A stretch of 64,000 nucleotides of DNA from Octopus sinensis (taxonomy: Eukaryota), in the NCBI RefSeq assembly GCF_006345805.1, contig NC_043002.1, forward strand, positions 13,950,001 through 14,014,000, in the 5' to 3' direction. The notes under the pieces are model-generated. The model was not told the DNA's origin. It worked only from the letters and a program-made list of their open reading frames with translations, and did not search any database. Below are positions 14,385 through 62,400 of this stretch, piece by piece. The translations under genes were made by a program, and so were the position numbers. The stretch's first letter is position 1. Every line of letters starts with the position of its first letter.

Positions 14385-15990
14385 ACTCTACCTTAAATTT
14401 TTTTGTCATTTATTTCTCCGTCAATTTATCCACTTCCAAAATCCCCAGGTATTTATAGCTCGTCTCTTCTATCTGCTCCATAACCTCACCCGACGTTATC
14501 GTTAGCCCGTCCATACATTTGATTTTGTGTCTCTTCAAGATTAAAATGCCACAATTTCTAAATCCGAACACTATTTTGATATCAGCGCTGAAGGTATACA
14601 CCGTATCAACGAGGGAACTGACTTGGGCTTCATCTTTACCATAAAGTTTGAGATCATCCATGAATAACAAATGGTCGACTTTTTGTTGGCGGCTTTTGAA
14701 TACATACCCAGCTCTTGCTTTCCTCGGGATCAGTGTAGTGGTATCAAGCACATTACAAAGTTCAGTGAGGACAGGCAGTCACATTGGAAGATGCCCCTCC
14801 TAATTTCTGCAGTCCCTAAACATCTTCCGTTTGCTGTCATCTCTGTCTTCCAATTCGCTATACTTTTTCCAAGCAATCGCTCAACATTCGATGCAATACC
14901 AAATAGGTTCTTACATTCCATTATCGAAGAATGTGGGATCATATCGTACGCCTTACGATTGTCGATCCATGACATGGCTAAATTACTTTCCCTCTTCTTG
15001 CAGTCTCTGAGTACAGTTTTGTCTATCAGGAGTTGATCCTTGGTACCTCTGCACTTTCGCTTACAACCCTTCTGCTCATGTGGCAGTACTCCATTTTCTT
15101 CGAGATATTCTTCATTGACTCTGCGAGTATTCCAGTCTATAACTTCCACATAAGTGGCAAACAGGATATCGGCCTCTAATTGTCTACAGCTATTCGTGCA
15201 TTACATTCATCAAATCTTTTGATCCAGTAGCTTTGAACTCCATCTAGTTCCAGGGGCTTCCACTTGCTCATTTTTTTTGCTGATTTCCTTCAGTTCCTTA
15301 ACTGAAATGACCAGATCTGCCTGTTTTTGATAGACTACTGTTACTTTCAGTTCCTTCAACCATTCAGCATCTTCTTGTGCTCCTTGTCATTGCTCCAGAT
15401 GTCACTCCAAAAGCTTTGACTTTCAATGTTATCTAGTATCAACTTTTATCTGTACACTCTCAATTTATTTCTTTATAGAATCTCTTCTGATCTATTCTGA
15501 ATAACCTATTCTGGTGGTAACTCTTCATTCTTTGATCGTATATTACCATCTTTGCTTTCTTTGCAATGAGGCGCTGTTTAGGTTCCTCCATTACTACTTT
15601 CAAGCCCTTTCTTTCAATATTATATTATACTTCCTTGATATTGCTTGATATGCAAGACCTTGTATTGCTTTATATCCAGGGTCTCCTCAACAATAATATG
15701 AATTTACTTGATTTGATGTATTCGGTGATTTCCAAGAAGGTTTTGAAAATGGTCTTTCCACCTACTAAGTCTCCCCTGTTCGGTAGAGGCCTTTATCTTT
15801 GCTTTGGAGGATTTCTTCACTCTCTGCCACGCCAAGGAACACTCTTTGATGTCTGCGGTGTTTTTGACTTTAAATGCATTTTACTGTTCAGTCTGATATA
15901 ATACATTAAGTTCTTTCAGCGACTTAGTTTCTCTATATAAATTCCCGTAGGATCCCTGTTGTGTTGTTTGGTTACTTCCTTCCGTTTCAA
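14385..15990 (-). mobile_element. R4/Dong-like (RLE-type) non-LTR retrotransposon fragment, RT pseudogene
   Basis: [65 protein letters not shown]. Frameshifted. Confidence 0.9.
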
Positions 15991-26745: not shown

Positions 26746-26899
26746 TGAAGAAATATTTAGCGGGATTTTGTTCGACGGCTTAACATCTTGGCCGGCTCAA
26801 CTACCTTAATAAAACTACTATGATAAAACTTATAACACAGGACGTTCAATAAACATGAAGCGATGAGGAGTGAGAGCTTCTTAACTGACTCACAATCAT

Positions 26900-27560
26900 T
26901 GATAACATCACAGAATGTATTGATAGAACCTGGATAAAGTAATCGTTTCACCAATTAACTTTTTGTAACATATTGATAAAACTGAAATGAGACCCACACA
27001 AGATTTTTTTTATTTCCTGGTAGTATGACCTTCCCAAAATGAAATAATATCTGCAAAATTGATAACCTCTCAGACTATATCACTATAACTTTGATAAAAT
27101 AATCGTTTCATCAATAGAACTATTGATTAATTTTTCTCTCAGATTGAAATGAGACCTACCCAAGGTGTATGTATTTACTGACCGTATGACGTTCCCAAAT
27201 GCAACAATACATACAAAATTGATAACCTCACAGGCCCTATCGATAGAACTTTGATAAAATAATCATTTCGCCAATTGAACTACTGGTTAATTTTTCTAAC
27301 ATATTGATAAACCTGAAAAGAGACCTACGCCAGGTGTATGTATTTGCTGGTAGTATGACGTTCCCAAACGGCTACAATGCCTGAAAAGTCGATAACCTCG
27401 CAGACCGTGTCAATAGAACTTTGATAAAATAATCTTTGCACTAATTGAACCATTGATTACTTTTTATAACAGATTGATAAAACTGAAATGAGACCTATCC
27501 CAGGTGTATGCATTTACTTGTTGTAATTCCTCCCCAGAATTCAACAGTATCTGCAAAATT
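26900..27560. repeat. diverged tandem repeat, ~165-170 bp unit, ~4 copies
   Basis: TGAAA(T/A)GAGACC recurs near 26983, 27145, 27313 and 27484. TTGATAAAATAATC recurs with the same period. Confidence 0.8.
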
Positions 27561-27599
27561 AATACAGAAATTCAACCAAATAAAATTGGATACAGGTTT

Positions 27600-42830: not shown

Positions 42831-43419
42831 TAGGTATAGATACAGATGTAGATATAGATGCATGTATGTATTTTTGTATAAGCGTGGGTGCATATGTGTG
42901 TGTATATATATACATACATGTTTATACAAGCACATCTATTCAAATAATGAACATTATAAGTTAATATATGCATATATACATTACGTAAACATCGCGACAA
43001 AACGAGACTGACACACAAACACTCAGTAGTAGTGATATCTCAAGTAAAATGAGGGTACCAATATAGACATTTAATATCTTACAACAGAACACTATTAGAC
43101 GATCGATTCGTGAATATACAATGTACGTCTTCCTTTCAATAGAAATCTCTTGTGGCTGTAGTGGATATTTTGTATATATAATTATCTGTTCCGGTTAGAT
43201 AAGGACAACAAACAATAAACGACAGTAATATACGTCTTCTAGCAAATGAGGTGAAGTTATATATGATTAGCCAAAAATTTCTGAATAACAGCAGAGATTA
43301 CTGTCATCATTGTTTTCCCCCAGGTGGACTACTCCAAAGACATAAAGAAAAAAAGAAATAACTCACTCGCACAAAGACACACACGGACAAACACACCAAC
43401 GCGTGCATTTCCACAGTGC

Positions 43420-44157
43420 AAACAAGGACAGACTCACGGATTAAGTCGATTACATCGACCCCAGTGCGTAACTGGTACTTATTCAATCGACCTCGAAAGG
43501 ATGAAAGGCAAAGTCGTCCTCGGCGGAATTTGAACTCAGAACGTAGCGGCAGATATAATACCTATTCCTTTACTACCCACAAGTGGCTAAACACAGACAG
43601 GACAAACGAGGACAGATTGACGGATTAAGTCGATTACATCGACCCCAGTGCGTAACTGGTACTTATTTAATCGAACCCGAAAGGATGAAAGGCAAAGTCG
43701 ACCTTGGCGGAATTTGAACTCAGAACATAACGGCAGATGAAATACCTATTTCTTTATTGCCCACAAGTGGCTAAACACAGAGAGGACAAACGAAGACAGA
43801 TAGATGGATTAAATCGATTATATCGACCCCAGTGCGTAACTGGTACTTAGTTTATCGACCCCGAAAGGATGAAAGGCAAAGTCGACCTTGGCGGAATTTG
43901 AACTCAGAACGTAACGGCAGATGAAATACCTATTTCTTTATTACCCACAAGTGGCTAAACACAAAGAGGACAAACGAAGACAGATAGACGGATTAAGTCG
44001 ATTATATCGACCCCAGTGCATAACTGGTACTTAATTTGTCGACTCCGAAAGGATGAAAGGCAAAGTTGACCTCGGCGGAATTTGAACGTAGCGGCAGACG
44101 AAATACGGCTACGCATTTCGCCCGACGTGCTAACGTTTCTGCCAGCTCGCCGCCTTA
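43420..44157 (-). mobile_element. SINE family A tandem array, four ~180 bp units
   Basis: The head is present only at the 44157 end. Units repeat at about 43421, 43600, 43780 and 43965. Confidence 0.9.
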
Positions 44158-53870: not shown

Positions 53871-54221
53871 GCAACCTAAACAAAACCCACGAATAAAAGA
53901 CAGACTCTATACAACATTTACCCAGTGAAATGAACTCCAACCAGCAATCCATACATTCAACACACAATACAAGCAAGAGTAACACGACAAATGACCGCAC
54001 GACACCTGAATACAGTTCCGGGAAGAGTTTCCACTCTCCCAACAACAGAAAAGAACAGACAATGCTGCACACACTGCAGCAACACGTTAGTGCAGCAGGT
54101 GATGCAGTAGAAATTTGCCGCGATCTATAAAAAATTGAACAGTTATATAATAATGATAACAACACCAACAACAGCAACAACAGAAATCATAAGAAGAAAA
54201 GGAATGAGAAGAAGAAGGTTG

Positions 54222-55580
54222 AACTCAACTCGAAAAGTCACAACGAAGCCATTAACATCATGGCACTTTCAGTAGTCCATTACAGTTTTAACATCATTTA
54301 CTGGATTCCTACGGAGCTCCAAAACCTGGAAAGGAAGACAAGAAATTTATTGACATCTAAGAACATGCACCACCCAAAAGTAGACGCTGACCGTCTGTAT
54401 CTACCTAAAAATAGTGGGGGAAGTGGAATGATGCAGTTAGAACTGTGTTATGAGACCCCTACAATATCAGTGAACAGGTACTTATCTAATACAGAGGGCT
54501 GGGTGCTGCGACTTGTTTGCAAACATGAGAGCCACACAAAATCACATTTTATTGTCAAGGAAGCTTATACAGTCGCAAGTAAACTTGGTATTAACCCTGA
54601 ATTAGATAAAGAATCTGAAACCACTGGTTCCCCACCACCAAAACGCATCAAGGAAACTGCAAAAAAGAACGGTCAGAAACTCCTGCATGGACAGTACATT
54701 CTTCAAATTCAAGATGCTGATGTGAATGAAGAAGCAACGCATCACTGACTGAGAAATTCAGGACTGAACACAGAGACTGAAGGCTTCATATTGGCGACAC
54801 AAGTTCAAAGCTCGCTTATGAGAAACTACCAGGCTAATGTTCTTCAAAGCGGTACTGATCCTAAATTCAGAGCCTGCAAACACTTGAGGAAACAATAGAC
54901 CATCTCGTTTTGGGATACCCTGTGCTGACACCAAATGAATACAAAAATTCTCCACGATAGTGAAGGGCATCTTTACGTTGGAAAATATATAAACACTACG
55001 AAATCGTCACTCCTATTAACTGGTATGAACATTATACTGTGCTAGTCATTGACGGTAAAAATGTTTGCATCTTCTGGGATTCTCCAGGAAACACTGACAG
55101 AACGATCCAAGATAATCAAACAGAAATAATTATTAAAGACAAGGAAAAATATACTTGTAGATTATAGATTTGTTTCCACTGATAAAAATATATCTGTAAA
55201 GGAATTTGACAAGCTTTGTTAATATAAGGACCTGGAAATTGAAATATATTAAAGTATATATATATTGAAGTATATTAAAGAAAAAACTGTTCCTGTTATT
55301 GTAGGTGTCCTAGATGTGATAAAAATGGGATATCAGAAATATCTAAACTACATCCCAGGAGAATCATGTCTCAGAGAAATTCAAAGATCGTGCTGGCAAG
55401 TATTGACCACATCCTCTGTCAATTTACATATCTGTGTTGTCTTACATGGAGGTATTTCGCTACTGCCGCTGCCACTTCCCCTCCCCAAGCTTTCAGTTAT
55501 ACTGTAATATCCGTTATACTTCCCTGGTCCTAGTGCGTTAGGTGTGTCTTGGCAAGTGATTGCAACAAACATGCAGAGGA
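54222..55580 (+). mobile_element. R4/Dong-like LINE 3' fragment ending next to (AAT)n
   Basis: LERKTRNLL...HHPKVDADRLYLPKNSGGSG, SGLNTETEGFILATQ, ETIDHLV, decayed RLE domain and TVPVIVGVL. Followed by (AAT)n at 55613-55678. Confidence 0.85.
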
Positions 55581-61498: not shown

Positions 61499-61534
<36 letters not shown>

Positions 61535-61538
<4 letters not shown>

Positions 61539-62322
61539 TGACTTAATATAGAATGATTGTCGTCATTTCTTTCTCTTTTGCCTGCGTTGTTTGCCTTTTA
61601 GGTGCTGTGGTTTTACTGGGATCTCCCTTTTAAGTAGAAAGAATAGCCAAAACTCTTTGGCTGCTATTTCTAAATTCGGTGTGTGGTGAGGCAAATCGTT
61701 GCCAAACCCTTAATTACTTAGTATTACTTAAACCTTCCTTGAATGGAGCTTTTACATGCCGAAATCTACTTGGTGAAATTAATGATTATTCCAAATTAAT
61801 TAATTTCACCCTATATTATTATTGATAATTATATTTCATCCCAGTAAAAAAACCATAGCATCTTAGTTTTGGCAGCACGCTGGCGGAGGGGGGATGGTGA
61901 CATACTTTCATTCACCCTTTGAATTTGGTGGTACTGGTAATGGCTTACGCTCGCTCTGATACCATGAGTTGAGGTGATGTCTTCTAGTGCCTTCAAATTT
62001 AATACACAATTATTAATAATTGAGACGCAATTATTTATAATTGAAGAGTCCTACACTGAAGAGGAAAATAGTTGGGTAAGACATAATTATTTAAATGTTA
62101 TGCTTTCCTATGACTTAATTCCGAAACGTACGTCCGTATGTGACTTAATATAGAATGATTGTCATCATTTCTTTCTCTTTTGCCTGCGTTGTTTGCCTTT
62201 TAGGTGCTGTGGTTTTACTGGGATCTCCCTTTTAAGTAGTAAGAATAACCAAAACTCTTTGACTGCTATTTCTAAATTCGGTGTGTAGTGAGGCAAATCG
62301 TTGCTAAACCCTTAATTACTTA

Positions 62323-62325
<3 letters not shown>
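61535..62325 (+). mobile_element. partial-tandem (pseudo-LTR-like) HHR element, 602 bp unit, between (TA)n tracts
   Basis: Direct repeats at 61538-61723 and 62140-62325, with an HHR immediately before the second repeat. No ORF. Confidence 0.85.
62052..62138 (+). ncRNA. type I hammerhead motif with long stem II
   Basis: TACA-CTGAAGA-GGAA-[hairpin insert]-TTCC-GAAA-CGTACG-TC-CGTA. Intact core, palindromic stem III, GUC triplet. Confidence 0.75.

Positions 62326-62396
<71 letters not shown>

Positions 62397-62400
<4 letters not shown>

Follow-up and report, generated by a model that had tools for sequence, protein, structure and literature searches.

The element at 61535-62326 of the window (the whole 64-kb stretch of Octopus sinensis DNA analysed here) is very probably a non-autonomous Penelope-like element (PLE) or non-LTR retrozyme, a new family of a known kind. 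The copy in the window holds 1.3 units of 602 bp with only one hammerhead ribozyme, and it begins within a few nucleotides of the position at which that ribozyme is predicted to cut. Whether this copy arose by run-off at the ribozyme-cut end of a partly cut tandem RNA we regard as evenly balanced. Its insertion into (TA)n was likely the work of a Penelope-like reverse transcriptase-endonuclease acting in trans.

Structure of the element and its family

The layout of the focal copy is as follows, signed values being relative to the predicted cut.

61501..61536: left half of the (TA)n target, the final TA being common to target and element (2-nt microhomology)
61537..61724 (+): upstream copy of the repeat, running from +3/+5 to +192
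61725..61834 (+): 110-nt 'tail' between the focal 3' end (+192) and the family's main 3' end (+302)
61835..62049 (+): non-coding rest of the 602-bp unit
62050..62140 (+): type I hammerhead, stem I pairing 62050-55 with 62135-40
62134..62135 (+): predicted self-cleavage site after GUC, placed from the hammerhead topology
62137..62326 (+): downstream repeat copy, ending at +192 with TAT microhomology into (TA)n
62327..62397: right half of the (TA)n target; target-site duplication not readable

The direct repeat (61535-61724 and 62137-62326, spacing 602, 96% identity) has a core of 187 bp with six mismatches (61538-61724 against 62140-62326) and one further mismatch at 61537/62139. This agrees with an earlier note on this DNA, which had described 186 bp direct repeats 602 bp apart, the upstream copy directly following (TA)n: we measured 187-190 bp at that spacing and found (TA)n on either side of the element (61501-61536 and 62324-62397). 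No second copy was found within the 64-kb window. The unit has a GC content of 35% and stop-free stretches of at most 73 codons, and a search for a tRNA head in it found none. An AT-rich hairpin lies within the tail (61772-61810), and the region 61625-61840 is strongly structured on folding (z = -5.1). Another hairpin is found directly upstream of the ribozyme (62007-62043). After the cut, each repeat copy also contains a 26-codon hydrophobic ORF (~61555-61633 and ~62157-62235, +), probably a by-product of T-rich sequence.

Other copies were sought in public sequencing runs. Twenty of the 24 listed runs (10 studies, four organism codes) contain some of the stretch, with no more than 47% of its words. 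Four runs covering three organism codes were aligned on one unit (61725-62326), with 1758, 1537, 1001 and 100 contigs aligned per run; X3, X2 and X5 are likely DNA and X9 is guessed to be RNA. The contigs reveal a high-copy family seen in several species, summed contig depth not being equal to copy number. The unit junction from 62326 to 61725 is seamless in 5, 5, 5 and 2 contigs of the four runs, and the contigs are too short to reveal dimers in other copies. In X9, one contig lacks 49 nt (61994-62044) and another 92 nt (62018-62111); these skips have no GT..AG ends and are probably deletion variants. A 20-nt family motif gave no matches in either the metagenome contig collection or the genome contig collection. 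A 17-nt ribozyme motif had a single viral match, which lacked hammerhead context. A gapped hammerhead pattern gave 19 metagenome matches; as none of the 19 stacks more than two pairs where helix II begins, none was taken as a relative.

The family data also bear on the integrity of the focal copy. An assembly artefact was ruled out: the repeat copies differ at seven places, and other runs favour the upstream base in five of the seven. Local DNA duplication and two nested insertions were ruled out as well, every internal junction recurring in other copies. The downstream copy carries at least five private changes (62139, 62164, 62240, 62248 and 62287). At 62203/61601 both copies have G in place of the A found in more than 99% of family depth, and this rare base points to one template lineage for the two, as judged from the alignments.

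The dominant fixed end of the family is a 3' end at 61834 into (TA)n, that is +302. Loose ends behind 61834 running into (TA)n were found in 9, 25 and 17 contigs of X3, X2 and X5, and depth drops more than 20-fold over 61830 in X2 and X5. Read-through over 61834/61835 occurs in contig pieces 1, 10 and 26. The focal copy ends at +192, in this copy only, and the family at +302, 110 nt away; there are thus two 3' positions. PLEs differ here, with a reported tail of 30-40 nt. All three hammerhead families of the window have two 3' ends each, ~95, 110 and 121 nt apart; the putative tails of ~95-120 nt are three to four times the published length of 30-40 nt. At all six of these 3' ends, CCT or TCT followed by an AT-rich run stands 8-25 nt before the junction, a pattern of six cases to which no statistics were applied.

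The hammerhead ribozyme

The earlier note had predicted a hammerhead cleaving after GUC at 62134, and both motif and topology were found there. On the plus strand the core reads CUGAAGA (62056-62062), GAAA (62123-26) and GUC (62132-34), in type I order. Stem II pairs 62063-66 with 62119-22 and holds a 52-nt insert; the helix II closing pair G10.1-C11.1 is present (G62063-C62122), giving 4 bp plus the long extension. The unpaired base between positions 9 and 10.1 that is typical of min-HHRs is absent from the focal copy, helix II starting right after A9. Stem III is a palindrome, ACGUACGU at 62126-33, identical to its own reverse complement, and its self-pairing duplex is predicted at -9.8 kcal/mol. 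Among 5000 sequences obtained by dinucleotide shuffling of the 602-nt unit, one contained a hammerhead motif of this kind. A search of Rfam at the gathering threshold gave no match at the ribozyme; Hammerhead_1 (RF00163) matches its span weakly, at 14.4 bits against a gathering score of 34 (E 5.9), as is expected because helix II carries the 52-nt insert.

Stem I forms six of six pairs with the family bases and four of six in the focal copy, where the damaged bases are A62055 and T62139. The family has G at 62055 in all aligned depth of all four runs and G at 62139 in ~100% of aligned depth. The stem I mismatch had previously been assigned to C62135. This is the family base, and therefore the repair of C62135 proposed as a cleavage test aims at the wrong base. 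A consensus lacking stem I pairing had been named as an outcome that would speak against the model; the family stem I is in fact a perfect 6 bp. A crippled internal ribozyme was considered as the cause of read-through and ruled out, all aligned contigs spanning 62055 having the paired base. In stem II, positions 10.2/11.2 vary, with A at 62064 in 44-69% (otherwise G) and U at 62121 in 86-93% (otherwise C). These unphased variants are compatible with G-C, G-U or A-U pairing. No core changes were seen among the 40 of 103 variants listed.

Folding gave a more mixed picture. With family bases, the 95-nt region is predicted to form helices I and II (stem I probability 0.88-0.99) and to leave helix III unpaired in the monomer; together with the self-pairing palindrome, this is the behaviour described for dimer-type PLE hammerheads (PMC4209133). 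With the focal-copy bases, helix I is not predicted. The stem I prediction is context dependent, family bases forming it in two of the four windows folded and not in the other two, and in longer folding contexts helix I formed in one of three windows. At the family level the ribozyme is real and better paired than the focal copy suggests; self-cleavage at the site is a prediction.

Neighbouring mobile elements

A Penelope-like remnant lies at ~35520-36730 (-), with a CX4CXXC linker, a C-terminal GIY-YIG domain (Pfam PF01541, E 1e-4) and an RT-like part in pieces. The remnant has a broken ORF and a Neptune-like layout; it lacks its 5' part and stops close to (TA)n at 34835. For CX4CXXC linkers, a role in directing Neptune PLEs to microsatellites has been proposed (PMC8557442). 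The presence of this remnant, with linker and GIY-YIG, in the 64-kb window is one of the points in favour of insertion by a Penelope-like enzyme. Comparison of the focal unit with the remnant and with the other hammerhead families of the window found only chance matches of 11-17 nt; as the remnant and the focal unit have no sequence in common, the window does not name the autonomous partner. A possible lead to it is contig record 25 of X9 (675 nt), which aligns only over 61725-61821, within the segment of high depth formed by 62250-62326 and 61725-61834.

Two further hammerhead families are present. At 29516-31436, a 482-bp unit has recently inserted head to head into (TA)n, the arms of the complex being 99% identical. 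Its four type I hammerheads are identical (minus-strand cores 29824 and 30307, plus-strand cores 30767 and 31249), with a 7-bp helix I and a near-palindromic helix III. Its foldback is at ~30538 (+217/+221) and its 3' ends are at +275 and ~+154. With two ribozymes per arm, this complex is closer to the definition of a retrozyme than the focal element is. A second head-to-head pair at 34402-34815 (cores 34533 on the minus strand and 34589 on the plus strand) carries the palindrome ACAAUUGU. It folds back 62 nt before the cut, and its 3' ends at +97 and ~+192 both run into (TA)n.

The window is also rich in microsatellites. ORF fragments resembling non-LTR retrotransposons lie at 14410-15200 (-), with a weak RVT_1 match (E 1e-4, below cutoff), and at 54131-54748 (+), which has no Pfam match. 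SINE-like repeats are abundant (43413-44157 and ~10 other places, including one 3.5-copy tandem of 184 bp), and a degenerate tandem array with a period of 160-170 bp and ~75% identity occupies 26898-27564.

The 5' end of the focal copy

The upstream repeat copy starts at the equivalent of 62137-62139, the TA being common to element and target. G61537 equals the family base at 62139, and therefore the copy starts at +3 to +5 with a loss of 2-4 nt after the predicted cut. A start 3-6 nt after the cut had been claimed before; its nearness to the cut holds and the distance becomes shorter. The chance of one end falling so near the cut is 0.8% (5/602), 1.8% when ±5 nt is allowed, or 1.7% when counted as one of 60 TA sites. 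An intron start was also considered, since a donor-like AG/GTGACT made of family bases lies at 62139/62140. It was ruled out, as G61537 precedes the donor and no fitting skip occurs among the seven joints listed.

In R2 non-LTR retrotransposons, which carry HDV-like ribozymes, the 5' junction coincides with the cut. Unlike R2, described as autonomous and rDNA-specific with an HDV-like ribozyme (PMC6765202), the focal family appears in most copies to read through its ribozyme. The earlier note had named a peak of 5' ends at the cut in other copies as support for its model. No peak was seen among the 24 of 302 loose ends listed, a weak test; none of these ends lies before 62135-62140, although single-contig ends were among those listed. 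Depth at 62121 against 62139 was 143k/151k, 124k/147k, 16k/16k and 343/611 in the four runs, and at 62095 against 62164 it was 17k/47k, 38k/41k, 4.4k/4.2k and 87/131, with no consistent step over the cut in the four runs. The contigs were aligned to the downstream copy, which has private changes at 62139 and 62164, on either side of the site where short junction contigs must align, so a minor 5' peak could be missed. What the contig test speaks against is a 5' peak equal in size to the 3' one; a minor class of such ends would be compatible with it.

Three opposite-strand (inversion) joints in other copies have ends at +103, +108, +338, +466, +552 and +6. The +6 end, at 62140, comes from one X2 contig, with no joint orientation given. 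Without the focal end, one of eight ends falls within +1 to +6 (p = 0.077); with it, two of nine do (p = 0.003), but the focal end was selected for its coincidence. The 5' junctions of the two other hammerhead insertions of the window lie at -62 and +217/+221 relative to their cuts. Cut-site run-off as a family rule is therefore unsupported, a single coincident end standing beside two that do not coincide. The same applies to the previous suggestion that these ribozymes define the end of the mobile RNA, the other 5' junctions of the window lying far from the cuts.

For the focal copy itself, the run-off reading draws on the perfect family stem I, the 5' boundary at +3 to +5, the joint end at +6, the self-pairing palindrome, the core that is unchanged among the listed variants and the rare base shared by both copies. 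It is weakened by the lack of a listed 5' peak and of a depth step, and by the two insertions that begin elsewhere. These same three observations suit an ordinary random truncation joined at the first TA after the cut, in which the ribozyme would have had no part in this insertion and the element class would be unchanged. Such a truncation would also agree with the choice of the focal case for its coincidence, and with anole PAc, for which ribozyme mutants are reported to have left in vitro insertion unchanged (PMC11167929). The low chance per end (0.8-1.8%) speaks against it, as do the second end at +6 in an inversion joint and a ribozyme kept intact over the family, which is thus likely used at some step. 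We consider random truncation rather unlikely.

The run-off reading is further weakened by the context dependence of stem I folding, by the in vitro use of uncut RNA by PAc, and by the position of the focal end within the 3' strand of helix I, a possible stalling point for a polymerase. This last point opens another explanation, that the reverse transcriptase stalled at the folded ribozyme base (helix I 3' strand, 62135-62140) on uncut RNA, with no cleavage at all. Both the focal end (equivalent to 62137-39) and the X2 joint (62140) fall within the helix that an enzyme coming from the 3' side reaches first, and the family-type helix I is predicted to be stable in two contexts. Yet in the focal copy the enzyme got past the identical downstream ribozyme, it passes the stronger hairpins of 61625-61840, and the end lies 2-4 pairs inside the helix and not at its edge. 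Stalling is, on these grounds, improbable.

A template cut at both ends would equally give a 5' end set by the ribozyme, both ribozymes having cut. Here a ligated 602-nt circle would have been copied 1.3 times and cut again, or the enzyme would have jumped at the cut from one linear monomer to the next. In favour are the seamlessness of both unit junctions in other copies and the rare base common to the two repeat copies; circular RNAs, moreover, are documented in metazoan retrozymes (PMC7229834) and have been suggested for PLEs (PMC4209133). An intact circle, though, offers no cause for stopping at the cut, and the palindromic stem III should leave a monomer circle inactive. We regard a monomer template as decidedly improbable. 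The earlier note had held that the template was a ribozyme-cleaved RNA copied for about 1.3 units; the 1.3 units stand and the coincidence is tighter than described, and run-off from a cleaved end reaches only an even balance.

Discussion

The element resembles several described systems. The focal ribozyme is like the pLTR hammerheads of metazoan EN+ PLEs (Cervera & de la Pena 2014, PMC4209133; Craig et al. 2021, PMC8557442) in its type I core and G10.1-C11.1 pair, and in a short palindromic helix III suited to dimer folding. The partial-tandem layout, (TA)n target and fixed 3' end are likewise PLE-like, and the putative optional tail may be (PMC4209133, PMC8557442). Among the reported PLE traits are partial tandems, insertion into (TA)n, tails and 5' joints with microhomology (PMC8557442, PMC3846280), the last being described for Penelope (PMC3846280). 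Unlike pLTR hammerheads, the focal one sits in a unit without an ORF, and its helix II has the 52-nt insert and no unpaired base after A9.

In being non-coding, low in GC and high in copy number, the family matches metazoan non-LTR retrozymes (Cervera & de la Pena 2020, PMC7229834; Li et al. 2026), which also have one type I hammerhead per unit and are proposed to be moved by PLEs. Retrozymes are reported to derive from PLE pLTRs (Li et al. 2026, bioRxiv 10.64898/2026.07.22.740005). The 602 bp unit falls within the 51-972 bp range given in that preprint and is longer than the 150-450 bp units of Cervera 2020 (PMC7229834). The focal copy, with its 1.3 units and one ribozyme, differs from the active retrozymes of Li et al., described as having at least two ribozymes.

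An experimental parallel is PAc of Anolis (Poseidon; Frangieh et al. 2024, PMC11167929). PAc is reported to initiate internally at two sites, to read through its ribozyme and to have a 30-40 nt tail (PMC11167929). PAc and the focal family would have in common two internal initiation sites downstream of the ribozyme and read-through of the ribozyme, and both have an AT-rich target. The main in vitro substrate of PAc is uncut RNA, its RNA-seq reads are described as neither starting nor ending at the cut, and its hammerhead is dispensable in vitro (PMC11167929). In contrast to PAc, reported without ends at the cut, the focal copy has its genomic 5' end 2-4 nt from it.

Insertion by run-off at a cut end would proceed as follows. 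A tandem source locus would be transcribed, and two hammerheads would pair via the ACGUACGU palindrome and cut inefficiently, here at the upstream ribozyme only. The enzyme would then nick (TA)n and begin cDNA synthesis internally at +192, the shorter of the two start sites, the main one of the family being +302. It would pass one uncut ribozyme and copy 790 nt to the 5'-OH end left by the cut of the previous ribozyme. The cDNA end would be joined to the target by TA microhomology with the loss of 2-4 nt, and A62055 and T62139 would have been acquired after insertion. On such a scheme the cut would supply only a minority of the family's 5' ends.

Cutting of PLE precursor RNA by hammerheads was proposed in 2014 (PMC4209133; review PMC6765202), and what hammerheads do in PLEs is described as an open question (PMC8557442, PMC4209133). 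In the main texts covered by our literature search we found neither this family nor any account of PLE 5' junctions that cluster at the cut. We put forward only tentatively that the hammerhead may cut in vivo and that the genomic 5' ends it leaves at +1 to +6 may form a distinct class, fossil traces of ribozyme action during retrotransposition. If true, this end class would run against the in vitro result for PAc. A high-copy, multi-species family with an intact ribozyme makes the role of the hammerhead testable by counting 5' junctions in existing long-read assemblies.
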